Assembly: GCF_963676685.1 (NCBI RefSeq)
Contig: NC_092350.1
Location: forward strand, 12,896,001 to 12,960,000
DNA: 64,000 nt
Direction of reading: 5' to 3'
DNA from: Mytilus edulis
Lineage: Eukaryota
Of the stretch, positions 21,092 to 62,449 are shown in pieces (the first letter of the stretch is position 1; each line of letters opens with the position of its first letter). A model generated the notes under the pieces. It was not told the DNA's origin. It ran no database searches and was given only the letters and a program-made list of their open reading frames with translations. A program made the position numbers and the translations under genes.

Positions 21092-21738
21092 TTTGGTTGA
21101 TAAACAATCGTGTCCTCCCCCGGAAAAGGATTTGCGCGCAACTGATATTCAGGGTTTGAACCTGGTGCTATATCCACTATCAAGCAATTGTATGGTCTGC
21201 TAATTGCACGTTGGTAAACGTCCATGAAAAAGCGAACTTGACCTGGAAACATTTGTCGAGCTAAAGATTGTATTTGCAGTGAATCTCTACCATTTTTGAA
21301 AAGAAAAAAGACGTGAGAATTCAAACTGATTGATCGCATAACCTTCCCCTTCTGATATAAATTTTGTAGTATAAAAATAATTGATGTTAAGGTGTGATGA
21401 CTTAAAACGCAATAAATCTTCTGCATCAGTTTACAGTCCACTACTTCATCCATTTTATCATCAATGATCCATAATGTGTGTATATCCTTATCAACAAGAA
21501 AATCACTTTCATCAGGCAGTTCCAGTTGAAATGAAATGTTGGAGACAGTTTTTTTCAATTCATCGAAGACATCTTGCCATATGCTGTAACAGTAGTATAT
21601 CTTCTGAGGTGGTATTGTAAACATTTCCTGAGCGTTCTCTAATAATCTTTTAATGTATGTAGTTTTTCCTGAACCCGTTGGACCGACACATATTGAAGTC
21701 ATGGGTGTTTGAAATTTCACCAAACTCATGATGATCAC
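21088..21738 (-). CDS. FtsK/HerA (A32-like) genome-packaging ATPase
   Basis: Walker A GPTGSGKT, Walker B LWIIDD, SHH and ILQN motifs. Confidence 0.95.
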   Translation of the reverse strand: MIIMSLVKFQTPMTSICVGPTGSGKTTYIKRLLENAQEMFTIPPQKIYYCYSIWQDVFDELKKTVSNISFQLELPDESDFLVDKDIHTLWIIDDKMDEVVDCKLMQKIYCVLSHHTLTSIIFILQNLYQKGKVMRSISLNSHVFFLFKNGRDSLQIQSLARQMFPGQVRFFMDVYQRAISRPYNCLIVDIAPGSNPEYQLRANPFPGEDTIVYQPK

Positions 21739-21791
21739 CTCTTGCTCGAATGATGATTGTTACCATGTGTCTCATCATTTTAAACACTTTT

Positions 21792-22259
21792 TCATATGCA
21801 GTGTGAATAGGTTTTACCAATCACATTGAAAACAAAGATGTCGTTTGCTTGATGATTATCACTGAAAAAATCGTGAATGTTAGTTAGATCATACTCTCTA
21901 CATAAGAGTGATAAGATGAAAATGCAATATTGACCGCATACTGATGAATTCTCACTCTGTAATCGTTTTTGATTTATTTCCAGAGATATCGCATTGTGTT
22001 CAAAGAATTTTAAGAAGTGACGTGAATAATAATCGGGAGAGTGTGCGAAGCTGTCGAAAAATATCCCTCTTCGTTCCTCATTTATGAAAAAGGCGATCCA
22101 GTGTGCACCATTCTCAAAATGATTTTCAGTGTTACAAATAAATCCCATGGGTCGATTTCTCACTATCTTAGGTATCTGATCTGCTGCAAATATACCAACA
22201 ATTTTATCCTTCATTAGTTCATCACAATTAATCATACACTCCAATTGCATAGTGTTCAT
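21792..22259 (-). CDS. Adenain-like cysteine maturation protease
   Basis: His GAHW, Asp FFDSF, oxyanion Gln RLQ, Cys VCGQYC. Confidence 0.93.
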   Translation of the reverse strand: MNTMQLECMINCDELMKDKIVGIFAADQIPKIVRNRPMGFICNTENHFENGAHWIAFFINEERRGIFFDSFAHSPDYYSRHFLKFFEHNAISLEINQKRLQSENSSVCGQYCIFILSLLCREYDLTNIHDFFSDNHQANDIFVFNVIGKTYSHCI

Positions 22260-23578
22260 TCTTGAATTATGATGTCTCGAGTTTGAGTTATTTCAAAATA
22301 TCCACTAAATTCACTATAAATGATTATAGTTGTTGGTTCAGTGAGGGGAGAATCAAATGTGCATTCCAAATTGACACGTTCATTCCTTTTCAATGTTAAA
22401 TAATCTAAACCTTCAAAAATTGGTTCCAGTTGAAAGGCATACAAGGCATATCCTTCAGAAAAACTGTCTCTGTTTAATCCATTACCACAGTCTTGCAGAG
22501 TTTTCCCAGCAACCTCAAATAGATTGCGAAATGCAACAATGGATGATTCTCCACTTGACGAGTCAAATTTTACTCTGACAGGATTCCCGGAAACTGGCAC
22601 TCCCTCAACTTTAAGATTTATTTCACTTAGGTGGCAATGTTTGAATGTCCACGGACATAGTGAGTAGTCACCTGCTATGTTTTGACTCCCCGTAAAGGCT
22701 ATCAATACCTTATTGGGTCTATTATTCTGGAATATGTTGTTGAAGTTAAAACTTATTTGACCAGCTGGAAGTGAAATTGTGCGAACATCATTTTGCACAA
22801 TGGGATATTTAGCGTTTACTGTCCTGAGTATAGAATCGTGGCCATATACAATGCCGGGGTGAACGTGGATCTTTGCTATTGATAGATACATATCTTCAAT
22901 CTCAAGGTAATAATCAGCATCTTCATCAACCGACATTAGATAAAATTCTGGTCTCGATCTGTAGAATTTCACAGTAACTCCTACTTGATTTAATATGTAA
23001 CGATTCATTGAAAACAGGGGATGGAAAATGTTTCCTTCAAGATCAACAGTTTTACCATTTTTTATGTATGCTGTTCTTCTGTAGAGCCCAAGATTTGATC
23101 CTGTGTTACAATCTGCATCATCCAATGTTCCTTGATGATCGTCTATCCATAATTGACTTGAGAGCTGCGATTCTTTAGCTTCTTTCCCATATTTCAATAA
23201 AGTTTGCATATAAGCTTTGTAAGGGTAAAATCCTGTTGAAGATGTGACAATTTTATTTTGAATTAAAACATCTATTTGATTAAATAATGCATGCAAAACA
23301 TAGTTCACAGGCCCGCAATTAACGTCACTGCTATCTGCTATGGTTCCATCTCCTCTTTTAAGTCTTAGACGTACATGCATTGTTGATTTACTTAAGTCTA
23401 GATACTCTGTTCCACCAGATATGTGAAACTCTATTGGCGATGTCTTTGTAAAAGTTGCAGCTGGTCGAATATGTTCATATGTGATTCTTGTGACTGCAGT
23501 TTGATGACCTGGTAGATTGAATAAAGACAACTGACTTGGTTGCAGCTCATGAAATGTTTCAGGATTTATTTTAGCCAT
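22256..23578 (-). CDS. Major capsid protein (double jelly-roll, Polinton PY)
   Basis: 440 aa; LSLFNLP, PIEFHI, YLDLSKS, GPVNYVLHALF, YPYKAYMQTLLKYG and GYALYAFQL match the Polinton MCP pattern. Confidence 0.92.
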   Translation of the reverse strand: MAKINPETFHELQPSQLSLFNLPGHQTAVTRITYEHIRPAATFTKTSPIEFHISGGTEYLDLSKSTMHVRLRLKRGDGTIADSSDVNCGPVNYVLHALFNQIDVLIQNKIVTSSTGFYPYKAYMQTLLKYGKEAKESQLSSQLWIDDHQGTLDDADCNTGSNLGLYRRTAYIKNGKTVDLEGNIFHPLFSMNRYILNQVGVTVKFYRSRPEFYLMSVDEDADYYLEIEDMYLSIAKIHVHPGIVYGHDSILRTVNAKYPIVQNDVRTISLPAGQISFNFNNIFQNNRPNKVLIAFTGSQNIAGDYSLCPWTFKHCHLSEINLKVEGVPVSGNPVRVKFDSSSGESSIVAFRNLFEVAGKTLQDCGNGLNRDSFSEGYALYAFQLEPIFEGLDYLTLKRNERVNLECTFDSPLTEPTTIIIYSEFSGYFEITQTRDIIIQE

Positions 23579-23586
23579 TTTGAATT

Positions 23587-24057
23587 TTACTGGAAAATAT
23601 CCTTTTCAATTAGCTGATTCTTTAATCTTTTTTTCACACTCTGTACACTTCCTTTCTTACTGTTTGTTTTATTTTTCCTTCCTCCTTTCTTTGTCTTTTT
23701 CGTTTTCTTCTGCTCCCCTCTATGGCTTTTTCTATTACTGTTTTGTAACTTCCCACGTTTGCGTTTTATCTTTTTCACAGCTCGACTAATTTCCGACTTA
23801 GCATTTTCCACCTGCTGCTGTGCATGTGTTACAAGTTTAATGGGTGATTGCGCATGTGGTTTACTTTGTGGTAATGTGATTGGTTCCATGAAGCTAGCTG
23901 CTGAATTAGTGAGGGAACCACCACTCTGGATAGTTCTTCTGTATGAATTATTAAGATATGAATTGTGATGTTTGTCATTCGCTAGATTTTCATAGTACAT
24001 TATCCATGTCCTAGGGTCTAGCACATATTGAGAATTGTTCAATTCCATGATTATCAT
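23587..24057 (-). CDS. Putative core/DNA-condensing protein, 156 aa
   Basis: QSGGS motif followed by a very Lys/Arg-rich C-terminal half; between mCP and MCP. Confidence 0.7.
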   Translation of the reverse strand: MIIMELNNSQYVLDPRTWIMYYENLANDKHHNSYLNNSYRRTIQSGGSLTNSAASFMEPITLPQSKPHAQSPIKLVTHAQQQVENAKSEISRAVKKIKRKRGKLQNSNRKSHRGEQKKTKKTKKGGRKNKTNSKKGSVQSVKKRLKNQLIEKDIFQ

Positions 24058-24462: not shown

Positions 24463-25617
24463 TTAAAAGTCAACAATATCTCTCTCAGGAATCCACTGAC
24501 AAAAACGTTTATCCCAATCCTGGAATTTTACATAACCCTCACGTTGACCATTCCGCCTTCGCCATTTAAGCACTTTCTCAACAAACCACAATGCGTCAGC
24601 CTCCTTTTTCACACGCTGCAACTCTGTATAATTGAAATTGCCTACAACTTCCTTGTCCAAAAAATCTTGTACTTTATAAAAGATTTTCCCATGTATTAGA
24701 AATCGTCTATATATTTTAAATATTTCGGAGGTCCACTGTTGCTGATAAGCTCTTTGAAACGGTTTCTTCAAATGGCTCAGTCTTACCATGTCATTGATTT
24801 TAAAATGAAACTGTTTCCCTCTTTTACGTTGTACTTTTAATGTTTCTTTCTTTTCTCTGATTCGTTTTTCTTTGGGTGGAGTTTTAATATACATATATGC
24901 CCACAAATCATATTTGTTTTTCTCATTCACATCTTTTGGAGCTGTATTATTTAAACTTCTATGTGGCGTTGCATTATAACTTGCTACCAAATTTTGTAGA
25001 ACATTGAGATAGCTATAAGTTCTATGCTTTGTAAAATATCGGAACATCATCCTCCGAAATGTCAAATTGACCCTCTCTGCTATTGACGCTTTACTACTGT
25101 CGGAATTTAAATAGACATGATGGTAAATGTCATATTTTTTAAACACACGTTTCAAATCTTTGTTTTTGAATTCAGTTCCCGCATCTGTGGAAACCTTCAA
25201 AGGGATTTTACCATGTTTGAAGATTTTTTCAAATGCATCAGCTACTGTCTTCCCAAACTTGTTTTTTAATGGATAAATCCATAAAAACCGTGTGAAAATA
25301 TCGATAACAACCAACAGGAAACGTGTCTTATTGTTATATTTCTGTATGTTGGATACATCCATAAGGTCAGCATCGTATTGCTCATACGGTTCCGATACAA
25401 TTATTTTCACTCTTTTAATTCTACGTTTTACAGGTTTTTGTAAATTGTAGTCGTCTATTTTTTCCATCCATTTCCTGATCTTGTATACGCTTGGTACATT
25501 TCCATCTCTTGATGTCTTCAACGTTTGATAAATTTTTTCAGCACTTAGGTATGCTCCCCCATTTGCTGTATTGTAATATACATTCCTAAGTTTTTCATCT
25601 AAATCATCATTTTCCAT
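24463..25617 (-). CDS. int: Retroviral-like (rve) DDE integrase with C-terminal chromodomain
   Basis: DADLMD, STDAGTEF, IAERVNLT; tail WFVEKVLKWRRRNGQREGYVKFQDWDKRFCQWIPE. Confidence 0.95.
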   Translation of the reverse strand: MENDDLDEKLRNVYYNTANGGAYLSAEKIYQTLKTSRDGNVPSVYKIRKWMEKIDDYNLQKPVKRRIKRVKIIVSEPYEQYDADLMDVSNIQKYNNKTRFLLVVIDIFTRFLWIYPLKNKFGKTVADAFEKIFKHGKIPLKVSTDAGTEFKNKDLKRVFKKYDIYHHVYLNSDSSKASIAERVNLTFRRMMFRYFTKHRTYSYLNVLQNLVASYNATPHRSLNNTAPKDVNEKNKYDLWAYMYIKTPPKEKRIREKKETLKVQRKRGKQFHFKINDMVRLSHLKKPFQRAYQQQWTSEIFKIYRRFLIHGKIFYKVQDFLDKEVVGNFNYTELQRVKKEADALWFVEKVLKWRRRNGQREGYVKFQDWDKRFCQWIPERDIVDF

Positions 25618-25963
25618 TGTTAAAAATAGGTTCCAAATCTATCATTTTTTCAACTTTATCTATTATGCGAGATGCTCTGTGCGGTGTTTTCAATATAGTA
25701 TTTTTCCAATCTGTTGATTGTAAAAATGTAAGTTGATAGTAGACTCTCACATTATCTGGAATATTTGATTGTCTGACTAAATTAACAAAATCGGTGTACA
25801 CTTTATCTGTTTCTACTTGATAAAAAAAATCCCATGCATTTCCTCCACTTATGTGTTCCACTTGATTTTCCTTCTTCAGAATGTCAAAAACTGACTTTGC
25901 ATATATTATATCGAATATGTTATCAAGTCTGGCTATATTTTCACATGATTCTATCTCATCCAT
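25607..25963 (-). CDS. Hypothetical protein, 118 aa, first ORF of the structural block
   Basis: ATG-initiated, overlaps the integrase start by 11 bp; no recognisable motif. Confidence 0.6.
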   Translation of the reverse strand: MDEIESCENIARLDNIFDIIYAKSVFDILKKENQVEHISGGNAWDFFYQVETDKVYTDFVNLVRQSNIPDNVRVYYQLTFLQSTDWKNTILKTPHRASRIIDKVEKMIDLEPIFNNGK

Positions 25964-26010
25964 GTTTTATTAATAATAATAATAATTTATAATGTATGAT
26001 ATTTTTGTTT

Positions 26011-26052
26011 GGGTTAGGGTTAGGGTTAGGGTTAGGGTTAGGGTTAGGGTTA
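26011..26052 (+). repeat. (GGGTTA)7 telomeric-type tract
   Basis: Seven perfect hexamers at the inner edge of the right TIR. Confidence 0.97.
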
Positions 26053-39997: not shown

Positions 39998-42900
39998 ATG
40001 GACAACTTAAAGACAGAATTACTAACCGGACTTTCGGCAAATCCAATGTTTATTCCAGCATGGTACCGTTATGACGAAGAAGGATCTCGGTTAAATGATA
40101 TTTGTATGGAGCAGTGCAAATATTACTACTTTCATCGTTTTGAAAGGAACATCCTGATTGACATTATAACAGTACGTACTCATAAATTAAGGTGGCTCGG
40201 GCGTATTCGAAGTTTCTATCAGAAGTGCCGTATTTTTGGTTATTTTATTCTTTAAAGAAAATGAATCAAATTGGTCGAAAAAAAATAGGGTGTCACGGAC
40301 CATTTAAGCTCAAAATTTTACTTTTAAACACTGTCAGGTATGTAAAAGGGACCATTTTTCAATGAAATGATAGGGGAAATAGAGGTGTTGACATATTTTT
40401 TTCGGAATATCAAAAAAACGTTCTATGACAATTGTTCCAAATCTGTAATATGAAAAGCTGGAATACAGCTTCAAAGAATGAGCCAATAAAATACATAGGT
40501 CACCGATAAGGAAAAAAAAATATTTTGCCTTGCAACCCAAATTTTGGCGGGAAAATGGTAAAAATGGGTGAAATGTCATTTTGACCCTTTAAAAAATACC
40601 GATAATAACGAAAATATTCTATTAGTCACATAACTACAATGATTTAATATTTCTAATCAATCAAAATATTAAAAAAAATTACGACAATTACTTTTGTAAT
40701 TCATGCGTGAAATTATGCGCAGTCGAATAGTCCCGAGCCACCTTTAGCTAATATGTCGCTTAAATGTGCAAAAGGGATGAGACACAAGTTAATCAAACTT
40801 ATATAGTCTTCTCCCATAAAAATTTATAACAGTAGAATATTTACAAAGCATGTATACAAACAATACATTATATATATATATATATAAAAAATATTTGAAC
40901 TGTGAAGAGATGGTGTGTGATGATGTGACTGGTTATACACAATATGCATGTATTTGCACTTTATAATGTGCTATATTACACAATTACAAACCTCTTAGAC
41001 TCTTTAATAAATTCATATACATTCTTTACAATTCTTTCATTTTCAACATTAGTTAAAGACGTATCGCCAGAGGTTAAGATGTTCAAATTTAGTAGAGAGT
41101 TAAATAGAGAGTATTAAATAATTGGGTTCTTATATTCGAAAAATTAGGACAATAAAAAAAGAAGTGACGTGAATCTTCGCACTTAGCACCACAGCTACAA
41201 GACGGATCTGAAATAATGTTGACTCTGTTAAGATCATAATTCAAAAAAGAAGCTGAGCACCTAAGTTGTGTCAAAATAATATTGAGTTTACGATTGCCAA
41301 AGTCATAATGTTTTGGTACTTGGGCTTTTGAATTTATTTTAAGATTTTTTAGTTCGGTTTAAATTTACCTAAAGAGTAAATGTTGCGTGTCCGCACCACA
41401 TTAAGGTTATTCCACAGTCGTATTGTTGAAGGTATGAAGGATTCTTGGGTTAATGAAAGTCTACAAAAAGGGTATATGATATCATTCCCATTACGTAATG
41501 GATAAACAGTTTTAATTTGGATTGTTAGTGGAATTGAATTGCAAAGATCGGCTGGTGCATTATTATGTTGAATATTATAGAATAATTGTACCTTCCTTCT
41601 TTCTCGTCGTTCAGCTAGAGTTTCCCAACCAATCACATCATAGATAATTCTATTAATTGTAAAAATAGGAAGACCTGTTACAATTATGGCTGCCTCAAGC
41701 TGCAGCTGTTCTAATTTTTTACAATAACTCACACCCATATTAACCCAAAGTTCACATGCATATTCGAGTAGCGGTCTAATAAAAGTCAAGTAAAGCTTTC
41801 CTAAGTTGCTCCTACTTATCCTGTACTTTAATGTTCTAAGTACATTCAAATGTTTAAATACATTTTTTATGATAATTCAACATGGGTGATCCATTTAACA
41901 TCTTGACTAAATGTAACACCCAAGACGTGTTTATGGAAGTCTGTAACTTCAATCCTCTAACCATTGAAAGTGAAATTCATTTCTGGAGTTTCAATGTATG
42001 AAAACAACATTATTTCTGTTTTTCTGGGTTAAAGGACATCAGCCATTTCTTAGACCAATCGCTCAGCTCACTCATGTCGTTTAGATAGAAAAGAATAATA
42101 TATGCAATAAATACACATGGAAAAAAGTATTGCAACACCAAATTGAAATTCAAATTAAAAAAACACTCTTTATTTTTTTGTGATATAATTTGTTGAAATA
42201 GAACTATTTAAACATTCTTTAAATATTACTTGAGTTTAATTAATAAATATCGACTCGATAAGTTCTTATCTGCACATGCAGCTACTGTATTCGTAAACAA
42301 TAAAACAGATTTTTTTTATCTTCACTGTTTTCAACACTTTAAATAACCAAGTTTATAAAGTTATGTGATTGACACCTTGTAATTGGTCATCCAGACTACA
42401 ACTCATAACTGCAGCAAGATGGTAGATAATCAGCATTAGAGAAGCATGTATGTCGATGTGACAATTGCACGTATTGTTGGTTATCACCATTCTACTATAA
42501 GTCGTTTTGAGAATAAAAATCAGGCAACAAACGATGTTAAAGACCGTCCGAGATCAAGAAGATCCCCTATAACATATGCTAGGGAAAATCAAGCATAATG
42601 AAGGTTGGTCAGAAGGAACCCCATTGCAAACAATACAATCCTAAAAAGAGGGTGATGACCATACAGGAGCCTTTAAACAAGAACTGTTAAATCGGCTCAT
42701 CGCTACTGGTTATCGAGCGATGAGACCATTTCAGTGACCTTTGCCTACGAACAGACACAGTTGCCCGTATCCAATGTAGTGCAGAGCTCGCCAAAGTTGG
42801 AAATTAGCATCGTGGAAGAAGATCCATTGTTCCAATGGAATTCGGTTCATCTTTCTTTTTTTTTTTCTTTTTTTTTCCTTTTTAGTTGAAGTGTCCTAGA

Positions 42901-45900
42901 AATATCTTTAAAGTGTTTTACTTTGGAGAAATTAAAGTTTGAAGCATTTGGACTGTATTATATTCTTGTAGATTGTAGGATCTTACGTATTCGTCAAATT
43001 CAGATTTTAAAAAGAATTCGGTTTATCTTCCTTGGCCCGATCGTAGCCCGGATTCGAACCATACCGAGCATATATGGGACACTATTGGGCGTAAAGTGCA
43101 CGAAAGGACACCCCAGTTCAAACACGTCATGATATAAACAATACCCTTCGTAAGGAATGGTTGCTGCTACCTTAGCAACAAACTGGTCGACTTATGGTAG
43201 GAATCAGAAGACGTTAAGATGCGGTTATCTGTTTGAATGGAGGCTGCACACAAGTACTAATTCTTTGGCGTATAACGATCAACCATCATGTGAACAATCA
43301 TCTAAAGATTAATTTTGAAATGTCTGACATTGTAAAGTTCGACTACAGTAACAGTTGTAAAATGCATTTTTTTGTACAAAATACACTTCATTTTGTTATA
43401 AAAATTTTGGTTAAATAAAACAATTTTTTTCATACATTTTTTGTTCGTTTTAATGCCAATATTATTTTTCAAATATTTTATCATATTCCATCCAAAATAA
43501 GAGGCTGATTTTTCAAGTTTTAAAAAATCAAGGTGTTGCAATACTTTTTTCCATGTGTATATTAATAACATCGAAATAAAACGACTACGTACTGCAGTGT
43601 ATTGTAGATGATCATAAATTATCATTTATTGAGCATTACTATGATAGTGTTTGCATATGTGTAACATGTGTAACAAGCGATAGTAGACTTGTCATAAACT
43701 CAACGGACAATAACCCGTATCAGCTCTGTGTAACGTCACGTGATAGGGCTGATATGGGATTATCAGCCTGGTTGCGTTCGCACCTAGGCAGTATATGATA
43801 TGAAGTATAATACCTGTCTTTTTGTCTTTTTCCTTATCGACCCGGCAAAAATCTCTTGACCAATACTATAAATCGACTAACGACTCGGTATGATACCCCG
43901 GCCGATATGACTCTCGAGCTGATATGCAATCCTTATTGAAAACAATTTAGTTATTAAATTTATCCTATTCAGTAAAAATAGTTTGTTTTTTTTTTATAAA
44001 AAAGAAAGATGTAGTATAACTCTGACGAGACAATCATCTCTTGACAGAGAAGAAGTTAAAGACGAAAGGACAAATATGTGAACAAAATGTGGCATTGCAC
44101 GGCCTTCAACAGTTAGCAAAAACAAAATCATATAGAAAATTTAGAACTAACCAAATTAAGATCCAAAACCTGATTCAATTTAAAAAAAACAATAAACGAA
44201 CGAAAAACAAATTAAATGTAGACAGCAACCAAAGCGTCAGAGTTTAACAGGGTTCTCTAACCATCGCGGATAATGAGGTTACAGGCCAACATAAATGTAA
44301 AATGGACTTGATTCGGTCAATTCTAGGAACAGTTACAAAAGTTTGTTTTAATTTAATTTTGTAGATTGCCATCCTTTTCGTAACGTTCAGTCTTCGCAAG
44401 CAAAGCTTGGGGCTGAATAACATTTGCATCAATCGGATTCTGTTTTAGATTAAAAAAAAAAATACTTTTCTTTTATTGACAATGAAACTTGGCATGCAAG
44501 TCAGTATAAAACAATTGCGTCATTTCAAATTGAAAAAAACCTTTTCTAATTGGTAGATGCTAAAATTGTGTAAGGACTAAAGAGCCAGAGAAAAGAAAAC
44601 ATTACCAATTCTGAGGCTTTTTTTTTGTTTTGTTTGATGTAGTTGTATTTTAAAGGAATTAACAGAATATTTGAAAGATTCCAGAATGGTTGTTGACCTT
44701 GGTAGTGGAAATGCCACCAAGACAATGTTGATCTTAGATAAACTTTTAGAGACGCACGAATCTCTAACTTATGTCCCAGTAGATATTTCTAAAGGTTGGT
44801 ATGAACGCATTGTTTTCCCCTTACTAACCAAATGTGTTTTTCGAACGTGTCTATCTCCTTTTGTTGTTGAAATATTTGAACAGAAAGTCGATTATTTGTA
44901 AGCTGAAACATTTCTTGATCAATAACATATGCATACTGCATTTTAGGCTAGATAACACCATGGCTACAAAAGAAAAATACAAACAGACAAATAATAGTAC
45001 ACAAAACACAACATAGAAAAATAAAGACTAAGCAACATGAACCCCTCAGGTGCTCCGGAAGGGTATGGAGATCCAAAGATTCAAAGTATGACAATTAAAG
45101 ATTAAAATCATTTTGCATGTGGTTTAGTCTACAGCTCAAAAGAAAACTTGTATGATTTATAATTATATAATATACTGTAATTAAACAATATAACATAAAA
45201 CACAATGTTACCATATTTCTTCCAACGATACGTATTAGCAACAGAAATAGCTGCAGAAATAAGTTACTGTATAAAAAACGACTATTAGGATTTTCTGTGT
45301 CACTGCACACTGTACTAATTTTTCTAATGTTTTTGTATGCAATGTAGTGTTTGCCTAGCTAAGATTTTTTTTAAACATTGAACATTATTATTCACTATTT
45401 CATAGATTTTCTTAGCAAAACCGCTGCAAACGTGAAAACAATATATGGAAATAAATTAGATGTTCATCCAATCGGAGAGGAATACATGGTAGCACTGAGA
45501 AAAGTAAAGTTAGTATATTTATAATGTCTATGAATAGATGTTAATTGACTTAAAATGTTGCATCCTTGTTTGATTAATTGTTTCTCTGGAAAATCTACGA
45601 AAACGAAAACGACGCATAGTTTTTTTTTAATCGAATAACGTTTGAAATTGTCCTTTTCCATTAAAAGATTTTTTTTTATTAGATAGATTTTAGATAATTT
45701 ATTGTTTCTTATACAGAGACAATGCAGGCAATATAAATCACGAATGAATATGCAGTCAAGCTGTCGTGTGGTTTGACCAAATCATTTGTATCCAATAATG
45801 ATAAGGTATTCATAATCGCTTGTTTTGGTTTGAAAATTATAAAAGAAAAAAGAAATACATCGATTAAATAAATATTTCTTCTTTTTGTTTTATGAAAAAT

Positions 45901-48900
45901 CTAATTTGTCTTAAAACAATTCTAAAGTTTATAGCCATTTTTTTAGATTGACTTCTGATTTATGTTATACAGAAAAAAACATCTTGCGAGTCTTCAATAC
46001 ATTAGCTTATACAAGCTTTCAAATGCATTAAGTAATTAGTACATTTTGCCCCTTTATTTTTTTATTCACAGAACTATGACAGATAAAAAAATTATTGTAT
46101 GGTTTGGAAGTTTGCAGAGTTTATCGTATGAAAAGCAGTTAGATGTTCTATTGGAAATACGAAACACTATGCAAGGTACTTGAGGCGAAGAAGAAATGTA
46201 TTGCTGAACTTGACCATTCGTCAGTCTTTCCTTTTTTCTGTCAATCTTAACTTCCATTCGGCTGTCCGTCCAGCATATGACATCAAATCTTTGAATCAAG
46301 GAGCATTTAGGGTAAACTGTAGTTCAATGAGACCCCAAAATAGCGACAAAATTAATCAAAAGACATGCATATTGCAACATGCAACAATCAACAATAGACA
46401 ATGTATCGTACATTATGTCAAGTGCATCACCATTAGGAATACAAAAAATAAAAATAAATTCATAACTATGAACACCAATTCTCTACTTATTAAAAATTAC
46501 GATATAACATGATAAAACAATCGGACTTAGTGGCAGGCGCATGCGTGTTGATACATCTCAATACCTACCTTTACTATATCGACCAATGGACTGACACAAT
46601 GTCTGTCAAAGATTCTCATACTGAAATGTACAGAGCCATGTTGTTCTCATACATGTACAGATTCGTGGTTTATTAAGTCAAGCGCTGGATATGTAAAGTC
46701 TAGCGCTGTAGATTTAAAAGCAAGCGCTGAATGTGTAAAGCCAAGCTTTAAAGTATATATCCGGTTCTGTACTTTTATTACATATACACGTTGATATAGA
46801 TTTGAATTTTTATTTTCTAACACAGGGCTGAAACCTGCTAAACATTTGATCGTCAGAAGGTTTTAATACACTTATTTAATATGTTGCCAGGCTTTGTTCT
46901 TTCATCAAGTCATGCTGGGGATCAAACTTGTGAATTACAATACGCATATTTAAATATCACACTAAACACATAATAATTTAAGATAACAACACCAAAGATG
47001 CATGAAATTTTATTGTACAGAAAGTCAGATAGTACGTCGATGTCGTTTCTTCTCGCTCTACACAACACAACAATAACCCCCGTATATGTTTTTATTGGTT
47101 CTACATGTAAATAAAAACAATATTTGTTTCACTTAAGGTTTCTTTATTATGGCTGTACTATTTGTTTTATTTATGAAGAAATAATTTAATTTTGGATGTA
47201 CGCGTCTTCTGATTGGCTGACGTTGTTATGTTTATCAGCTCATAGACATAATTTTGTCATGTGACTTTGACGTCATCAATGGTTTTTCATGAATTCCTCC
47301 GGTTTAAAATGAAATTTAGATTTAAATTATAAGATCTGACTGTAATTCTTTTTTTTCTGTCTATTTGAAATAACATAAAAAATGTGGTGCACACTTTAAA
47401 ATAACCCACTACGAGGGTTATTCATTGTGCATCGCATTTTTTATGTTATTTCTTCATAGACAGAAAAAAGTAATATTAAATATGTGGTGCACACTAAATA
47501 ACCCGAGTAGCGGGGTAATTAAAAGTATGCATCACATTTTAAGGTTATTTCGAATAGACAAAAACACATTACAGTCATTTGTCATAATTTATTTCTATAT
47601 TCCAGTTGTAAGGAGTAAATTTTGAAAAAGACGATGGTTACGTCACGGTCAAATGACAAAATTATGTCTATGATCTGATAGACAAAACACATTTAGCCAA
47701 TCAGAAGACGTGTTACATCCAAAGTTAAATTATTTACCTATAATTCACATATTTCTTTTTTTATTCAATTGCAGTACTTATGGTGTCTTAAATGATTTTA
47801 ATTAATACTTGGTATCTTGTTGCAGTGGATGACAAATTGGTGATTACATTTGATGTGACAGATGCATCTCGTAAAGATATTATAGAGCTATCTTACCTAG
47901 ATCCTGAAGGTAAATATTAGTCCTCATGCGTTTGATACTACAACCATCTCATAAAACGTAATATACAATTATGATAAGTAGTTACTACTGTAATCACTAG
48001 CCAATCAACACTGAGGTTGCGAGTTCGAACCCCGCTCGAGCGGGTGCACTCCACTCCAATCTTTATTGACTAGGATTGTCAGTTTTCCTATCGAAGGTCG
48101 GTGGTTTTCTCCGGGCACTCCGGCTTCCTCCACCAATAAAAACAAGCAGCCACGAAATAGCCTAAATGCGGTGGTTAAAGGGGCGTTAAAATACCAACAA
48201 TAATAAATCAGTAATGATTAATACAAAACAAAGTCAAAATCTCTAATTTTTATTTTCTACAAAACATTTTGAATGTCATATTTATATCGATAGATATAGG
48301 AAGATGTGGTATGAGTGCCAATGAGACAACTCTCTATCCAAATAACAGTTTATAAAAAGTAAACCATCATAGGTCAATGTATGGCCTTCAACACGGAGCC
48401 TTGGCTCACACCGAACAACAAGCTATAAAGGGCCCCAAAATTACTAGTGTAAAACCATTCAAACGGGAAAACCAACGGTCTAATCTATATAAAAAAAAGC
48501 GAGAAAGGTACAGTTTGTTGTTCATATATTTTAAACTTTGTAAAAAAATATACTAGCATTTTCATATCATACTGGTTCGTTAAATATCTTCATGTTTTAC
48601 TGACATCACTCCCTAGACTAGTTTATAATGACACCATACTCGAATTATAGAATATACGATTGTCTATGACATCATGTAAAGACATACTGGAATATACGAT
48701 TGTCTATGACATCATGTAAGGACATACTGGAATATACGATTGTCTATGACATCATGTAAGGACATACTGGAATATACGATTGTCTATGACATCATGTAAG
48801 GACATACTGGAATATACGATTGTCTATGACATCATGTAAGGACATACTGGAATATACGATTGTCTATGACATCATGTAAGGACATACTGGAATATACGAT

Positions 48901-51900
48901 TGTCTATGACATCATGTAAGGACATACTGGAATATACGATCGTCTATGACATCATGTAAAGACATACTGGAATAAACGATCGTCTATGACATCATGTAAG
49001 GACATACTGTATATACGATTGTCTATGACATCATGTAAGGACATACTGTATATACGATTGTCTATGACATCATGTAAGGACATACTGGAATATACGATTG
49101 TCTATGACATCATGTAAGGACATACTGGAATATACGATTGTTTATGACATCATGTAAGGACATACTGTATATACGATTGTCTATGACATCATGTAAGGAC
49201 ATACTGGAATGTACGATTGTCTATGACATCATGTAAGGACATACTGTATATACGATTGTCTTTGCCATCATGTAAGGACATACTGTATATACGATTGTCT
49301 ACGACATCATGTAAGAACATACTGGAATATACGATTGTCTATGGCATCATGTAAGGACATACTGGAACATACGATTGTCTATGACATCATGTAAGGACAT
49401 ACTGGAACATACGATTGTCTATGACATCATGTAAGGACATACTGTAATATACCATTGTCTATGACATCATGTAAGGACAAACTGGAATATACGATTGTCT
49501 ATGACATCATGTAAGGACATACTGAAATATACGATTGTCTATGACATCATGTAAGGACATACTGTAATATACGATTGTCTTTGACATCATGTAAGGACAT
49601 ACTGGAATATACGATTGTCTATGACATCATGTAAGGACATACTGGAATATACGATTGTCTTTGACATCATGTAAGGACATACTGGATTATACGATTGTCT
49701 ATGACATCATGTAAGGACATACTGGAATATACGATTGTCTATGACATCATGTAAGGACATACTGGAATATACGATTGTCTATGACATCATGTAAGGACAT
49801 ACTGGAATATACGATTGTCCTTGACATCATGTAAGGACATACTGAAATATACGATTGTCTATGACATCATGTAAGGACATACTGTAATATACGATTGTCT
49901 TTGACATCATGTAAGGACATACTGGAATATACGATTGTCTATGACATCATGTAAGGACATACTGGAATATACGATTGTCTTTGACATCATGTAAGGACAT
50001 ACTGGATTATACGATTGTCTATGACATCATGTAAGGACATACTGGACTATACGATTGTCTATTACATCATGTAAGGACATACTGTAATATACGATTGTCT
50101 TTGACATCATGTAAGGACATTCTGGAATATACGATTGTCTATGACATCATGTAAGGACATACTGGAATATACGATTGTCTTTGACATCATGTAAGGACAT
50201 ACTGGAATATACGATTGTCTATGACATCATGTAAGGACATACTGTAATATACGATTGTCTTTGACATCATGTAAGGACATACTGGAATATATGATTGTCT
50301 ATGACATCATGTAAGGACATACTGGAATATACGATTGTCTTTGACATCATGTAAGGACATACTGGATTATACGATTGTCTATGACATCATGTAAGGACAT
50401 ACTGGAATATACGATTGTCTATTATATCATGTAAGGACATACTGGAATATACGATTGTCTTTGACATCATGTAAGGACATTCTGGAATATACGATTGTCT
50501 ATGACATCATGTAAGGACATACTGGAATATACGATTGTCTTTGACATCATGTAAGGACATACTGGATTATACGATTGTCTATGACATCAGGTTAGGACAT
50601 ACTGGAATATACGATTGTCTATGACATCATGTAAGGACATACTGGAATATACGATTGTCTATGACATCATGTAAGGACATACTGGAATATACGATTGTCT
50701 TTGACATCATGTAAGGACATACTGGAATATACGATTGTCTATTACATCATGAATGGACATACTGTAATATACGATTGTCTTTGACATCATGTAAGGACAT
50801 ACTGGATTATACGATTGTCTATGACATCATGTAAGGACATACTGGAATATTCGATTGTCTATTACATCATGTAAGGACATACTGTAATATACGATTGTCT
50901 TTGACATCATGTAAGGACATAATGGAATATACGATTGTCTATGACATCATGTAAGGACATAATGGAATATACGATTGTCTTTGAAATCATGTAAGGACAT
51001 ACTGGATTATACGATTGTCTATGACATCATGTAAGGACATACTGGAATATACGATTGTCTATGACATCATGTAAGGACATACTGGAATATACGATTGTCT
51101 ATGCCATCATGTAAGGACATACTGGAATATACGATTGTCTATGACATCATGTAAGGACATACTGGAATATACGATTGTCTTTGACATCATGTAAGGACAT
51201 ACTGGATTATACGATTGTCTATGAAATCATGTAAGGACATACTGGAATATACGATTGTCTATTACATCATGTAAGGACATACTGTAATATACGATTGTCT
51301 TTGACATCATGTAAGGACATACTGGAATATACGATTGTCTATGACATCATGTAAGGACATACTGGAATATACGATTGTCTTTGACATCATGTAAGGACAT
51401 ACTGGATTATACGATTGTCTATGACATCATGTAAGGACATACTGGAATATACGATTGTCTATGACATCATGTAAGGACATACTGAAATATACGATTGTCT
51501 ATGACATCATGTAAGGACATACTGGAATATACGATTGTCTTTGACATCATGTAAGGACATATTGGAATATACGATTGTCTATTACATCATGTAAGGACAT
51601 ACTGTAATATACGATTGTCTTTGACATCATGTAAGGACATACTGGAATATACGATTGTCTATGACATCATGTAAGGACATACTGGAATATACGATTGTCT
51701 ATGACATCATGTAAGGACATACTGGAATATACGATTGTCTTTGACATCATGTAAGGACATACTGGAATATACGATTGTCTATGACATCATGTAAGGACAT
51801 ACTGGAATATACGATTGTCTATGCCATCATGTAAGGACATACTGGAATATACGATTGTCTTTGACATCATGTAAGAACATACTGAAATATACGATTGTCT

Positions 51901-53709
51901 ATGACATCATGTAAGGACATACTGGAATGTACGATTGTCTATGACATCATGTAAGGACATACAGGAATATACGATTGTCTATGACATCATGTAAGGACAT
52001 ACTGGAATATACGATTGTCTATGACATTATGTAAGGACATACTGTATATACATTATTGTTTTATTTGAGACGTACTTTAATATTTGTCTTTTATGTATCA
52101 TCGATCAATTGATACAATTTTTTTCTGCAGGTTACAGCGAGAAGTTTTATCTCAATTCCATCCATCGCTTAAATAGGGAAATGAATGGTAATATTGACGT
52201 ATCAAAGTTCGAAATTAAGAACGAATTGGTGGCAAATTCAAAGTCAGATAATTGTAGCTATGTTAATGTTTGGATAGAGGCTATCGAGAATTGTGAAGTT
52301 AACATAGGTTTGTATTAAATAAATACGACTCAATCGGGTGTGCAAGGCTGTACAAGTTTTTTTTAATCAATCGTTTTCAGTATGGCATAACATAGTTTTC
52401 GACATGCTGTTGTCCTTGTTTGAAAGCTTGGACATGTGTCTAGAGTGAACTGTAAATAAAAGAATATTACCGTTATTGATAAGTGTGTTTTGAATGATTG
52501 CAATGGAAGGATATGTGGTATGCTTGCCAATGAGACAATATCTCCCGTCCAAAAAAAGATCACCCAGACATGATGGAATATAAAACAAGAACCCCATACA
52601 AACCTGTTTTAATCTTATATACTGTGTTCTGGAAAGACCACGCTTTTGAAGGGAATACGTTTTTATTTTACGAATCGGTGCAACAACGGAGAGATGTTTT
52701 TCCTTGATTTAAAGATTTTAAGTTGAATTGTACAGTAACGTGTTAATCAAAGTTGCTACTAGAAACTGTATTAGGCAAACAATGTCAATGGCTACACTGT
52801 TTTCTTTTTATATCGCAAATTAGGCCAAACAATATAAGAATTGAAAGATAGTTAAAACAGTTTGACATCGTTCGTTATTGCATCAAGAATTAAACAGTCC
52901 AGAGTTTGAATAACAATTGTTTAACAAGCCAACAAGAAATGTATGCCAAATCATTAACATCTTATAATTGAGCTCATTTTGTTTTTTAACGCGAAGTTTT
53001 GCAGGTCCGGTTTTTATGACATAGATAGGTCTATAATATTGAGGCAATTTTGTTTTCTGTGCGAAATTTTCTAATGTTTTATAAAATAAGAAGATATTAT
53101 GAAATAGTTCTAGTTCATTGAACTAAAAAACATGAAATCATAATAATTATTTATCTAATAACAGCCGTATACTATATAATGTTTGTATATTTGTAACAAT
53201 TATTTAAAATACATTTTGAAAGAGAAGATTAATTGTACTATGATAGCAGTTTGAGGAACAAGGACAACTTAAATTTCCCTCACTCATTTGAATATTTATG
53301 TTGAGATAAAAAAAAAATGTGGCATGATTGCCAATGCAATGAGACAACTCTCCACAAGAGACAAAAATGACACAGAAATTAACAACTATAGGTCACCGTG
53401 CGGCCTTAAACAATATGCTAAGCCCAAACCGCATAGTCAGCTATGAAAGGCCCCGAAATAACAATGTAAAACAATTCAAACAAAAAAACTAACGGCCTTA
53501 TTGAGTTCATTTTATTATATATTATAGGAAAATTAGATTTAACCAGGAAAATTCTAAAAGGAGAAAGATTATACCTGAACGAAGAGGGAGGGATCAGCTC
53601 CAAACATACTATTGCACAATTCGAATATCTCTTGAATAAAGCGTCACTGGGAATGGAGAAATACTGGACGAATGAACATGTGGGAGTGGTATTAGTGAAC
53701 CGGCAATAA
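39998..53709 (+). CDS. EgtD-like (Methyltransf_33) SAM-dependent amino-acid N-methyltransferase, 320 aa, 7 exons (39998-40171, 44656-44794, 45406-45508, 46072-46175, 47826-47909, 52131-52307, 53528-53709)
   Basis: All GT-AG, phases compatible, 963 nt open. GLSANPMFIPAWYRYDEEGSRL, VVDLGSGNATKTMLILD, YVPVDIS, SYLDPEG...FYLNSIHRLNRE and GERLYLNE...ISSK parallel EgtD. Confidence 0.92.
40191..40742. mobile_element. MITE-like element (Kolobok-like ends) in intron 1
   Basis: TTAA|GGTGGCTCGGG...CCCGAGCCACC|TTTA. Confidence 0.6.
40980..42075 (-). mobile_element. Degenerate non-LTR retrotransposon (CR1/L2-group) ORF2 3' fragment
   Basis: LYLTFIRPLLEYACELW, GWETLAERRERRK, CSCGAKCEDSRHFFFYCP; frameshifted. 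Confidence 0.85.
42114..43557 (+). mobile_element. Decayed Tc1/mariner element
   Basis: 26-bp perfect TIR CACATGGAAAAAAGTATTGCAACACC with TA flanks; remnants DVKDRPRS (~42535) and WPDRSPDSNHTEHIWD (~43035). Confidence 0.88.
47181..47735. mobile_element. Palindromic MITE-like element
   Basis: ATAATTTAATTTTGGATGTA...TCTTCTGATTGGCT is inverted at AGCCAATCAGAAGA...TACATCCAAAGTTAAATTAT. Confidence 0.75.
48000..48210 (+). mobile_element. tRNA-derived SINE (V/Meta-like core), 5'-truncated
   Basis: B-box GAGTTCGAACC followed by GGTTTTCTCCGGGCACTCCGGCTTCCTCCACC. Confidence 0.7.
48650..52050. repeat. 40-bp satellite, ~85 copies (GGAATATACGATTGTCTATGACATCATGTAAGGACATACT), in intron 5 of the EgtD-like gene
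   Basis: Seen directly; head-to-tail with point variants. Confidence 0.98.
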
Positions 53710-54227
53710 AAAAAAATGTATATTAGATTACATAACTTGTTTCTTGTGTTTTTACTCTTTGTTCCCCAATGCAATCAATAAACAGCACATCAGTTACAAT
53801 AAATGATTACACAAACCTTAAAGGTCAACTATACGACGCAGGTCGGCAAAAATAGTTCAATCTCAACCGGTTGTGGTTGTTTTTTCGTCTCTCTGTTTGT
53901 TTATATACAACTTTTTTCTTCTTGAAAATTTGTTCTAGTTGGGAGTCAGTTTTTTCTATATTGTTTTTTTTTCTTTTTCGTTCTGTTTCGTTCATTTCAA
54001 TCACTTGGCATCCGTGGTCTGTAAAATTTTGCACACACATCCTTCTCTGAATCTTCAATGCTAGGTGGAACCGATTTTGACCAGAAATGTACAACTGTTT
54101 GGCTTATCAGATTCATAAAGCTTTGTCCTATCACAAAAAGATATGTATATCCGATGTTTTTGTTGTGGGAATTTCACGCTATCTATATATCTATATATCT
54201 ATACGCTAAATCATTTAAATAACTCTA

Positions 54228-55372
54228 TTGAAATATGTAAACACAAAAAATGTCAGCTATAATGGCAGTTTTTTACATACACAAAAAATGTTAGCCAATC
54301 AAGGAAGAAAAGCTGTTTTTGCTTTATGTAGTAAAATTGTAGATGAATATTATAACTGTGAAACGTTACTGTCCTTATTTGATACTTATGTATCTAGTAT
54401 ACTTAATTATAGCTGTGAAGTGTGGGGTAATCATAAAGCTGATGATATAGAGAAAGTACATTTATATTTTTTAAAACGAATTCTAAAGGTTAGAAAAACT
54501 GCAGTAAATAACATGGTTTACTGTGAATTGGGACGTTATCCAATGTATTATGAAAGACAAAGAAGACTGATTCAGTTTTGGTTTAAATTATTAAATACTG
54601 ATAACTGTATACTTAAAGCATGTTATGAAGATATGTTGGAGAGTTCATTTAAAAAACCCAATGACAAATCGAATTGGGCATGTTCAGTCAAAGATATTTT
54701 ATATAGATATGGTTTTCATGATGTATGGCTAAAACAAAGCGTAAATAATGTTGATATATTCATACATGAGTTAAAACAAAGAATGAAAGATACCTTTATT
54801 GCTGATGCTAATGCTTTTTTTAATAATTCATCAAAATGTATACTTTATAGATATATATATGACACAGATATACTGCAATTTTATTTAGATAGACCTGTTA
54901 ATCAAATATATAAACCTTTTATATGTAAATATCGTATATCCGCCCATAGCCTCAACATAGAAACAGGCAGATATTACAATGTAGATAGAGAAAATAGATT
55001 ATGTACTATGTGCAATAACAATATTGTAGAAGATGAATACCATGTTGTTCTAGAATGTAATAGATATAGTGATGTAAGAAAACTATGATACATTAAGAAA
55101 TATCATTGGCAATATCCATCCACTTTTAAACTTATACAGTTGTTATCAGTTCACAATGTGAAAGAACTTAATAATTTAGGTAAATTTTTGTTTAATATTG
55201 AAAAAAATTCGTAATATGTAGTTGTATTAATTATTTATCATATGAATTTATTTTCATTCTCCGCCATACATATATTGTGTATAATTATTGTATTTATATT
55301 TCACTGATACAAAATATTGTAAAATTGTATATTCTATAAGCTGTATTGCTTCTGAATAAAGTATTATTATTA
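54228..55372 (+). mobile_element. 5'-truncated LINE (CR1/L2-group) 3' end
   Basis: YVSSILNYSCEVWG, YRISAHSLNIETGRY, CTMC...EDEYHVVLEC; ends AATAAAG(TAT)n. Confidence 0.88.
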
Positions 55373-58535: not shown

Positions 58536-60381
58536 TGGGGACAGGAGTTGGGGTACACCCAAAAAACATGTTCAAATCAGCCATATACTTCATGTAACCT
58601 TATCCAGGAACCTGTAAAGAGTTATTGTTGTTGTATAATTTTGATTACTTTTATATGTATTTGTAAATGAAGTTATCATAGATTCAGTACTAATTTTTCT
58701 CCTTTAATTTGTTTCATATTTTTCTTATCCGGGTCTTATACAAATGGCCTAACGATATAGGATTTTTCTTATTGTTGAAGGAAATATGGTAACCTATAAT
58801 TGTTAACTCCCACGATATAAGCTGACTAGATCTTTGGTAAATAAATGTGTCATTAGCAATTAGATCACATCTCATTTTTCTTTAATTTTAAAGAGATTAT
58901 TTATCTTGTTGACTACATTCGAACTGGCCAAAAACAGTATATTAATAATTGTTCAAATATAATATGAATTTACATGAAATATGTTTTGAAACTCTGTTAA
59001 GACAATAGATGTTTACTAGTATACCATTACCTTTCGTTGATAAACTGACTAGAATGTACATGCAATGCATGAAGGTACTTCATTAGTACATGGGGTCTTA
59101 ACGTTTACCCCCCAAAAATAAGGCATTTAGAATCAAAGGAAAAGTACAAATTGCCGATGATAAAGTTTTGTCATACGTCTTCGTTCAGTCTTTTAAAGTT
59201 TATGATATGAATATCCGTTTCATCGGTATTCAACACTATTATCATGAGCTTCAATCCTTCTATTATAGGGGTAGATTGAAGACAGGTTATATAAATTGAA
59301 ACATTTTTATTTCAGTGGCAACCCTACATTCATCAGAGAGATGAAACGCATTTTTTGCCGACTAAAAAATATATCATAGATCGCAGCCGTGTATAATATG
59401 TACACACAAATGCGATTATCTATTAATAATTATCCCTGGGTAAATTGATAAAAAAAAATATTAAACAATGCTTAATATCTATATAATGGTGTACTGATGA
59501 TACTTTAATTTAATAACCAATTTAAAAAAAAAAGAAAATCATCAACAGTTCACTATTCAGTAGTCTTGTGTTTAAAAATTGCAGGGCTGCCAATTTAGCT
59601 TGAGACTCACGCTAATTTATGCTTTTTTCGCGGCATTTTCCTTTGATCTACTGTTTTTTCTCTTTGATCTTTTCAATTTTGGTCAAATCTCACGCATTTG
59701 CTTCATGAAAAGTTGGCATAACTGAAATTGTGAAAACAAAATTAACAACTGTTGTATGGAAAAGGATGAATCCTTTCAATGAGAAAGTTGCAAATGTACA
59801 AGTGTTCAAGATCGTGTGGTCACTTACCGACCGTACCCTTCAATTATGAATGTCACGATTACATTCTTGGGGAATATCTCCGTTGTAACCTATTTTAAAT
59901 ACGTTTCACTCTTACAGCTGTTCAGTGCATCTTTATCTCATCACTTTTCACAATATTAATATACAGTTTCGATATTTAAAAACACCAATATAAACATATC
60001 CTTTAGTAGTCTTCAATCTTGCCGAGGGTTTCAATTAGTCTATCATCTGGGGTGACTTTTAGATTGATGACGCTTAAAAATAACAACTTTTATTTCAGTG
60101 CTAAAACTACATGTTTCTGGCACAGAAACTGCGTCTCATCCAAAACGAATGATCATTGAGACCCTCACTTATATTTCCACGATCATTTTTTCGCCATATA
60201 CCAGTCATTTAATACATGCATGTTATTTAAAATCAATAATCAAACGTCACTAAATATTTTACCTGGGTGCATTTAGTGATATTCTTTATTGATACGATAA
60301 AATAAGTTCACAAATATATAACGTGTACATATATGATTTCTTGTAAACGACATCTACTTTCGGTTTTGTGATACTTCTATA

Positions 60382-61423
60382 ATGGCGACAGATTCGTCAT
60401 TTGAAGATCAAATCAAAAAAGCTTTATGGACTAAAGATGTGGACGCAATTCTCCGTTTGTGTGACGATAGTTCTCACAGGACAAGTATTCTAGGCTATAA
60501 AAAAGACGGAAAGCAATTAGTGCACTTTGCAGCTCAGTTTGGTTCTGTTCTCTTGCTTGACAAATTACGTGGATTTGGTTCTGATTTAAAACTTATAATT
60601 GATGATACATACGGATATCATCATGGTGGAGGTTCTACTCCTTTGCATATTGCATGTAAACATGGCAACATCGAAGTAGTTGAATACCTGCTTAAAACAG
60701 TACAAGACATTTCCTTCAACAATGTAGCGACTGTACAAGGTACATGTAGGAATAACAGGAATGCCTTTTACTATGCAGCACAGTCGGGAAATACTGAGGT
60801 TGTTAAATGTCTTCAAACGCTTGGAAAACTAAACATTAATGAAATACTACCGAATAATCATACAGCACTGTCAATATGTGTTGCAGAAAGGAATTCGAAA
60901 AGTGCTAAAATCTTATGCGAGTGTGGTGCAAATGTTAATCTTGGGAAGTTTGATAGAGGACTAAAACCTATTCAATATTTAGCAGAAAAACAGGGTAGTA
61001 GTGAAACAATGAAGGTCTTACTGAATTTCGGAGCAAACGTAAATGAACCGTGGGTGAAAATTGCGAGAAGATCGTGTTTACGACAGTCGCCTCTATTCAT
61101 GGCACTAAAACATGGCATCGGAGAGAATGCTAAAACCCTTATAGAATGTGGGGCAGACGTGTCATTTGTTGGACAAACTTCGAACATTGATATGGGTTCA
61201 ATAGGTTGTTTTAGTTTGGCAGCAAAGAGGTGCCCTGAGCTTATTTCGGATTTCTTGAAATACGGGGCCAATCCAAATGAAAGACACAATGGCAAATCTG
61301 TGTTGATGACTGTAATGGATGAGTATGCAGATAAAAGTGCGATACAAGCTTTAGTGGAAGCAGGGGCTGATGTCAACCAGCGGAAAAATGGTAAAACGCT
61401 CATACAATGCTGCCACAATTATG
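60382..61423 (+). CDS. Ankyrin-repeat protein, first coding exon (continues past the donor at 61424)
   Basis: TPLHIACKHGNIEVVEYLL, AFYYAAQSGNTEVVKCL, SPLFMALKHG, LVEAGADVN; donor G|GTAAGT. Confidence 0.9.
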
Positions 61424-62449
61424 GTAAGTTGTTCTAAATAATGATATCTTCATGAGTAAAACATGAAAGAAGAAATAATTCATTTAAGGTTGCAAGCTAA
61501 TGTATTACTTAAGGTTTATCATCATAATCTATCGGTGAATGTGACTGTTTTAACCTAAAACACGACATAAAATTATTTCGATACAGATCTAGACAAACCT
61601 TGCTGTGCACATTTAAAGCTTCAAGACATAGCTGGAACTAGTTTTTACCTCTCTTTAAAACTGTCAGAATAACTGTTATACGTTTTTTAGAACTGACATA
61701 CTCAGTTCTACGGTATAAATGTCGGAACAGAACAATACAGACAGTCAGACAGATATTTGCATTAACATAATAAAGAAATACTTTAAAATATACGGATCTT
61801 TCCAAAACTGTTTGTTTTAGAATTTTAGCAATAAAGAACTTTATTAATTTTGTTTAGACCTGTCAGAATCTGTTGTATGGTACAACTGTCTAAAACTGTT
61901 CTATGGTACTGCCGTTTCTGTCCAAAACTATTTTAAATTATAAATAAGAAAATGTGATATGATTGCCAATGAGACAATTCTCCAAAAGAGACCAAAATGA
62001 CACAGTTATTAACAAATATAGGTCACCCTATGGCTTTCAACATTGAGCAAATCCCATACCGCATAGTCAGCTATAATAATTATTGTCCGCACGACCTTAA
62101 ACAATGAGCCAATCCCATACCGCATAGTCAGCTATAATTAACAACTATTAATCACCGTACGACCTTCAACAATGAGCAAATCCCATATCGCATAGTTAGC
62201 TATAATTAACAACTATAGGTCACGTAAGAACTGTTCTACAGACTGTTGTAAAACTGTTCTCTGGACAGCTGATGACAGATATTTACAGAATTTAGAACTG
62301 ATCACAACTGGTTCATATGATTGCAGTTGCGTATCTAGGTCTATTTTACGTGCACGCCCTAACCTAGGAGGGTCCGGGTCAAAGCAATTACTGACAGTGG
62401 ATTCAAGGGAGCAAAACCAAAAAGTAAACATATCTTTTAAATTAGATTA

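Follow-up and report, generated by a model that had tools for sequence, protein, structure and literature searches.

A spliced EgtD-like methyltransferase gene of the mussel Mytilus edulis, with a predicted remodelled histidine pocket, belongs to an old animal clade

The window analysed here is a 64,000-nucleotide stretch of the Mytilus edulis genome (NCBI RefSeq assembly GCF_963676685.1, contig NC_092350.1, positions 12,896,001 to 12,960,000 of the forward strand), and the gene in question occupies positions 39998-53709 of its + strand. EgtD-like methyltransferases have been described from microbes and fungi. An earlier examination of the letters alone (the sequence-only reading) had proposed that this mussel locus harbours an intact, intron-containing member of the group, and the proposal holds, with start, end and length exactly as given there: seven exons, separated by six introns that all have GT-AG ends (6/6), join into 963 nt encoding 320 amino acids plus a stop codon, and the joined frame contains no internal stop. 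The resulting model agrees at 320/320 residues with the RefSeq M. edulis protein XP_071182075.1 (P0288), which is named 'histidine N-alpha-methyltransferase-like'. The GC content of the coding sequence is 0.35, comparable to the window's 0.25-0.37. Most searches and the fold prediction used as query the Mytilus trossulus protein P0002, which stands in for the M. edulis protein and differs from it at 14/320 positions.

On the + strand, the motifs AWYRYD, DLGSG, WFGSLQS and NEEGGISSK map to 40058, 44695, 46100 and 53578, respectively, and four of the seven exons (1, 2, 6 and 7) match the Pfam family PF10017 singly. Exon 1 (39998..40171, residues 1-58; E 2.9e-7 against PF10017) carries the start codon, the WYRYD motif and residues Y25, N33 and Y43, which correspond to EgtD Y39, F47 and Y56. 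The sequence-only reading had paired AWYRYD with the KWFYD segment of EgtD; the motif is present, and the pairing needs refinement, in that KWFYD aligns with WYRYD, Y39 and D40 are kept, and at W37 most non-animal relatives (63/106) already have Y. Exon 2 (44656..44794, residues 59-104) holds the motif DLGSG for binding of S-adenosylmethionine (SAM), intact at residues 72-76 as had been noted, together with K80 (K92) and D101 (D113), and exon 3 (45406..45508, residues 105-139) holds E130 and Y131, the counterparts of SAM-site residues D141 and F142. Exon 4 (46072..46175, residues 139-173) encodes the WFGSLQS loop, found where EgtD was said to have FLGSTIGN and one residue shorter than in EgtD, with Q154 (G165) and S155 (N166). 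Y197 (Y206) is encoded by exon 5 (47826..47909, residues 174-201), and S204 (T213), F207 (F216), Y208 (N217) and V248 (M252) by exon 6 (52131..52307, residues 202-260). Exon 7 (53528..53709, residues 261-320 plus the stop codon) replaces the T-E282-V strand segment by a seven-residue loop (277-283) and keeps S284 and K286. The earlier contrast between TExSxK and NEEGGISSK therefore stands as to the motif's presence and is refined as to its content: S-x-K is retained, with a four-residue insertion before it.

Splicing was followed in eight public runs, four aligned to exons 1-5 and four others to exons 6-7. In run X1, contigs splice out introns 2, 3 and 4 at GT..AG ends with a depth of 143-170, covering the 3' joint of exon 2, both joints of exons 3 and 4 and the 5' joint of exon 5, and a loose contig end at 47911 continues into exon 6. 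The joint across intron 6 (1220 bases) is present in all four exon 6-7 runs, which come from four studies and were chosen for containing the stretch, one of them (X7) being divergent enough for a related species. This joint leaves two database models unsupported: P0009, in which the gene is fused to a reverse transcriptase, and P0011, in which it is fused to a downstream ankyrin gene. A 366-aa open frame with several ankyrin repeats lies at 60337-61437, and P0011, which joins similar repeats to methyltransferase exons 4-6, is probably a mis-annotation. Exon 1 and the intron 1 joint are uncovered in 4/4 runs aligned to exons 1-5, X1 included, and no exon cover was found in X21, X24 and X6 (exons 1-5, with 6% and 18% sampled of two raw-read runs); with cover absent from three of the four runs on exons 1-5, expression looks restricted.

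The gene is under purifying selection. When it is compared with two intact paralogs that share its exon layout, the ratio of nonsynonymous to synonymous substitution rates (dN/dS, by the Nei-Gojobori method) is 0.24 (bootstrap 0.16-0.36) for one and 0.21 (0.12-0.31) for the other, the second pair being near saturation at a dS of 1.3, and 10/17 variant letters in the exon 6-7 runs are silent. The six GT-AG introns, the stop-free frame, the spliced contigs and a dN/dS of about 0.2 led us to reject contamination and a pseudogene as explanations. The mussel gene is an intact, spliced and conserved gene of the EgtD-fold family.

The M. edulis genome contains at least six loci of this family: the window gene, C7 13.21-13.22 Mb, C7 13.199-13.208 Mb, C7 24.64-24.65 Mb, C3 89.98 Mb and C2 3.34 Mb. 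The copies at C7 13.21-13.22 Mb and C7 24.64-24.65 Mb are the intact paralogs, and the C3 copy has seven open candidate exons. In-frame stops occur in 2/6 loci, namely L006/L012 (G000:C7 13.199-13.208 Mb), which lies directly behind an intact paralog, and L014 (G000:C2 3.34 Mb). Within intron 6 of the 24.6-Mb paralog, the 3' end of exon 6 also recurs as three partial copies in tandem (L008, G000:C7 24.6432-24.6434 Mb).

The sequence-only reading had come with a proposal to model the protein against the EgtD structure; an EgtD fold is predicted. The AlphaFold2 model (138 sequences) has a predicted local distance difference test score (pLDDT) of 96.7, and its top structural matches are EgtD structures, with template modelling (TM) scores of 0.84-0.87 and a root-mean-square deviation of 1.7-1.9 over 304-305 residues; nine EgtD entries give Z 35.9-38.6, and the next family, AzeJ, gives Z 20.4. 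The best match thus stands at TM 0.87 and Z 38.6. The predicted model has both the two-domain EgtD fold and a class I SAM site (G74, G76, K80, D101, E130, Y131), and the protein matches PF10017 (Methyltransf_33) over residues 5-311 at 178.5 bits, against a gathering cut-off of 23. The more specific profiles TIGR03438 (the EgtD equivalog) and TIGR03439 (EasF) give 163.1 and 98.7 bits, below their cut-offs of 290.9 and 205.55, and 12/12 animal proteins tested fall below both.

These scores bear on the possibility that the mussel gene encodes a genuine EgtD, one that would supply hercynine for ergothioneine synthesis. The RefSeq name speaks for it, as does the fact that EgtD proteins are the nearest solved structures; nevertheless, given the 163.1 bits against the equivalog cut-off and the changes in the histidine-reading residues described below, we consider this extremely unlikely. 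Histidine-specific members of the family are recognisable by sequence motifs and mostly occur alongside EgtB or EanB, according to excerpts of PMC9516567. An EgtB profile search of the M. edulis genome, limited to its best candidates and not extended to EanB, returned just one multi-exon ovoA-like locus (G000:C1:116864685-116873989, - strand, nine TIGR04344 matches) and two places matching no more than profile positions 165-312, which also argues against a true EgtD. The mussel gene does not imply that animals synthesise ergothioneine.

Phylogenetic analysis places the gene in a single animal clade. All 29 animal-clade rows lie on one side of a branch with support 99 in a FastTree tree of 153 rows, and 19/19 do so with 100/99 in an IQ-TREE tree of 69 rows, which used 50/124 of the other rows and in which the bootstrap is not fully settled. 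Bivalve and deuterostome rows are split (100/99). The named members are mussels, scallops, oysters, Dreissena, three hemichordates and amphioxus. In Ptychodera, isoform P0069 is missing precisely the stretch that mussel exons 5 and 6 encode, and in Glandiceps, model P0030 duplicates exactly the span of mussel exon 2; because these hemichordate isoform boundaries match mussel exon edges, introns 1, 2, 4 and 6 (4/6) appear, from protein models, to be common to the mussel and two hemichordates. One animal clade with a protostome-deuterostome split and apparently shared introns suggests that the gene, with introns, was likely present in the protostome-deuterostome ancestor. The family has duplicated in bivalves, with pockets that vary among the copies.

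Given one clade across bivalves, hemichordates and amphioxus, six introns of which four are apparently shared, and a window-like GC content, we rejected a recent transfer from bacteria to animals. The sequence-only reading had called the enzyme 'domesticated', a word that misleads if taken to mean a transfer that was recent or confined to mussels: the clade is an old animal one, its introns are apparently shared with hemichordates, at least five further loci exist and the gene is already in RefSeq. It had also suggested a phylogeny to separate transfer from ancient retention; the animal clade (100/99) disposes of recent transfer, and the animal ancestor may either have acquired the gene from bacteria or have inherited it. 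The nearest non-animal rows (P0038, P0040 and P0088) are metagenome proteins across long branches, and P0052, a methyltransferase-sulfoxide synthase fusion, falls outside the animal group. Named fungal rows are absent from the trees; in the Atlas, fungal and bacterial clusters are nearly equidistant, and a 62-member, mostly molluscan cluster there is named 'histidine N-alpha-methyltransferase-like'. Among the non-animal matches we also noted fusions of EgtD, with a SenB selenosugar synthase in P0051 and P0080 and with an ATP-grasp domain in P0150.

The catalytic frame of EgtD is conserved in this clade. We take K286 to be a carboxylate-binding residue of EgtD, E282 presumably to bind the imidazole, and F47 and M252 presumably to line the histidine pocket. 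According to the accessible part of PMC8593015, Y56, Y206 and S284 bind the substrate carboxylate, N166 is the partner of the alpha-amine, and T213, E282, F47 and Y39 are residues of the site; a review, seen in excerpt, describes N166 and G161 as critical for sequential methylation (PMC9103826). Residues were mapped by pairwise, profile and profile-profile alignments and tabulated for 22 animal-clade rows of the 32 in alignment A2 (19 named and 3 unnamed, after removal of near-duplicates and fragments) and for 106 further rows. G86, G88 and D113 of the SAM site are kept in 22/22 animal rows and K92 in 21/22. In the carboxylate set, Y56 is Y in 19 and F in 2, Y206 is Y in 19 (the three gaps being models that lack exon 5), S284 is S in 21 and K286 is K in 22; the mussel anchors are Y43, Y197, S284 and K286.

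This near-invariance, which together with a dN/dS of about 0.2 fits a defined amino-acid-like substrate, makes it very unlikely that the protein is a broad-specificity methylase that detoxifies aromatic amines or acids taken in with food, or a binding protein with weak or no catalytic activity. Such a role would sit well with every named host being a filter or deposit feeder, with the variation among paralog pockets, with the in-frame stops in 2/6 loci and with the missing exon cover in 3/4 runs.

The side-chain pocket is where the mussel protein departs from EgtD. The set F47-N166-T213-E282 is complete in 94/106 non-animal rows, with N166 present in all 106 and T213 in 101; the mussel protein has N33, S155, S204 (a conservative change) and either G282 or N278 at these positions, as well as V248 for M252 and Y208 for N217. 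The sequence-only reading had predicted a remodelled substrate pocket, and the alignments and model bear this out for the histidine side chain, with F47N, N166S, T213S, M252V and a predicted change from strand to loop at E282: the segment forms one strand (276-283) in a bacterial EgtD model, whereas in the mussel model two strands (274-276 and 284-287) are separated by a loop (277-283). Traits common to the animal clade are K36W (20/22), loss of G165 (22/22) and the four-residue insertion at E282, a column that holds Glu in 0/22 animal rows. Elsewhere the pocket is variable: animal rows differ freely at T213, N217 and M252, and F47 is N in 7, F in 7 and an acid in 5.

From this combination of a kept frame and a changed pocket, our preferred reading, which we hold with about even confidence, is that the protein is a SAM-dependent alpha-N-methyltransferase whose substrate is a free amino acid, though not histidine; the sequence-only reading had likewise proposed a different substrate. 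SAM would be bound as in EgtD, and Y43, Y197, S284 and K286 would hold the substrate carboxylate such that the alpha-nitrogen faces the methyl group, with the substrate side chain in a pocket that would have stopped reading imidazole. The enzyme would then add one or two methyl groups rather than make a betaine; a stop at one or two is probable because N166 and F47 are changed and the G161 loop is one residue shorter, and from the sequence trimethylation seems doubtful. As to the substrate, tryptophan or a modified tryptophan is a tentative first guess by analogy, made because the protein, like the engineered variant in PDB 4PIP, has V at 252 and no Glu in column 282; other side chains take up the remainder of our confidence. 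Of the small residues at 252 and 282 that mark this Trp-type trait, V248 fits, and the 282 position is ambiguous.

Several observations weigh against this reading. The Trp-binding EgtD variant and wild-type EgtD tie in fold rank, so the fold gives no word on substrate, and neither the bulky Y at N217 nor N at F47 need make room for indole. A literature search turned up no record of N-methylated tryptophan from mussels. N166 is kept in 17/22 animal rows, being C in oyster and S only in the window gene and its nearest paralog (3/22 rows); its loss is therefore specific to this paralog pair and may reflect a weaker activity rather than a new one. Finally, the counterpart of E282 is G282 when the register is counted from one side and N278 from the other, and position 279 is E or D in 19/22 animal rows (E279 in the mussel), preceded by H in 15/22, such that E279 may replace E282 and the imidazole-binding acid may survive.

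If it does, the enzyme or a paralog might add one or two N-alpha-methyl groups to histidine, 5-thiohistidine or ovothiol A and in this way provide ovothiols B and C, with the H/N-E loop taking the place of E282. We regard this as unlikely, though it has points in its favour: the acid at 279 in 19/22 animal rows, several paralogs in scallops and the single ovoA-like locus of M. edulis are all compatible with it, accessible passages of a 2025 paper state that the N-alpha-methyltransferase for ovothiols B and C is unknown (PMC12631010), and, in the part of PMC8433421 available, OvoA accepts mono- and dimethyl-histidine. Against it, M. galloprovincialis tissues are reported, in excerpts of PMC9029387, with ovothiol A only; no echinoderm or diatom names occur among the named matches (names were looked up for 30 clusters, and the majority of matches carry none); and T213, F47 and M252 are unconserved among animals.

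The N166 column bears on another possibility. Homarine and proline betaine are abundant in bivalves, and the two are mentioned together in one paper on oysters. Were the acceptor a ring nitrogen beside the carboxylate, as in the conversion of picolinate to homarine or of proline or pipecolate to betaines, N166 could have been lost as such an acceptor has few or no N-H bonds, and the carboxylate anchors are indeed kept while N166 is S in the mussel and C in oyster. According to excerpts of PMC13236597, homarine was first found in lobsters and is widespread among marine metabolites; those excerpts name no homarine synthase and draw no link to an animal EgtD-like family. This argument is one of geometry, N166 is kept in 17/22 animal rows and no crustacean is among the named matches; we consider it decidedly improbable.

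Apart from our preferred reading of a methyltransferase for a free amino acid other than histidine, a broader proposal can be put forward tentatively, namely that bilaterians have kept an EgtD-type amino-acid N-methyltransferase family for more than half a billion years and that the enzymes behind marine N-methylated metabolites are to be found in it, be it the N-alpha-methylase of ovothiols B and C or a homarine or proline betaine synthase. Animal EgtD-like genes are already annotated, automatically, in RefSeq. We found no study of them in the open-access literature, outside which most subscription papers lie, and the accessible parts of PMC13245600 and of bioRxiv 10.64898/2026.04.22.720169 contain nothing on the animal family. 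This old and expanded branch in animals, its catalytic frame conserved and its side-chain pockets variable, provides a handful of soluble 320-aa proteins as candidates for reactions that have no known animal enzyme, including the N-alpha-methylation in ovothiol B and C synthesis.

A 40-bp minisatellite of about 85 copies (94% alike; 48650..52051) fills most of intron 5, and we assign it no role. Open frames resembling by eye the C-terminal part of a reverse transcriptase of the LINE (long interspersed nuclear element) type, with no relevant Pfam match, lie in intron 1 (41349-41876, - strand) and just downstream of the gene (54219-55088, + strand). A Polinton/Maverick-like element spans approximately 2000-26100 on the - strand and comprises a 1278-aa open reading frame (ORF) that resembles a protein-primed DNA polymerase by eye (16351-20187; in Pfam, only a weak Endonuclease_7 match), a Pox_A32-like ATPase (21088-21759), a Peptidase_C5 protease (21792-22292), a 449-aa ORF without a Pfam match that is possibly a capsid protein (22256-23605) and an rve integrase with a chromodomain (24463-25638). 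Close to its end, at 26007-26052, lie 7.7 copies of the telomere-like hexamer GTTAGG. At approximately 6200-16500, two tandem copies of a block of about 6.1 kb flank a gap of 100 N at 11909-12008, with identical ORFs at 6885/12986, 8402/14505 and 8975/15078; this may be an assembly duplication.

Compared with known systems, the mussel protein is closest to EgtD of Mycolicibacterium smegmatis (PDB 4PIO, 4UY6; TIGR03438), with which it shares the fold, the SAM motif, Y56/Y206/S284/K286 and Y39 at 22-25% identity. It differs from EgtD by K36W, F47N, G165Q, N166S, T213S, N217Y and M252V, by the one-residue deletion in the G161 loop and the four-residue insertion at E282, and by a score below the TIGR03438 cut-off; its gene has six introns, and no egtB-type partner was found apart from ovoA among the best candidates scored. 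The EasF-type fungal N-methyltransferases (TIGR03439), of which EasF mono-methylates a Trp derivative, belong to the same Pfam family, and an EasF-named fungal cluster ranks second by language-model features (0.97); however, the mussel protein's 98.7 bits lie below both the EasF cut-off of 205.55 and its own EgtD score. With the engineered Trp-binding EgtD M252V,E282A (PDB 4PIP) it shares Val at 252 and, in profile alignments, the absence of Glu from the 282 column, but that variant changes two EgtD sites only, whereas the mussel protein also differs at F47, N166, T213 and N217 and has an inserted loop whose acid may reach back into the pocket. Its immediate relatives are the automatically named RefSeq 'histidine N-alpha-methyltransferase-like' proteins of bivalves, hemichordates and amphioxus, which form the clade that holds the mussel gene and within which N166S is confined to that gene and its nearest paralog.

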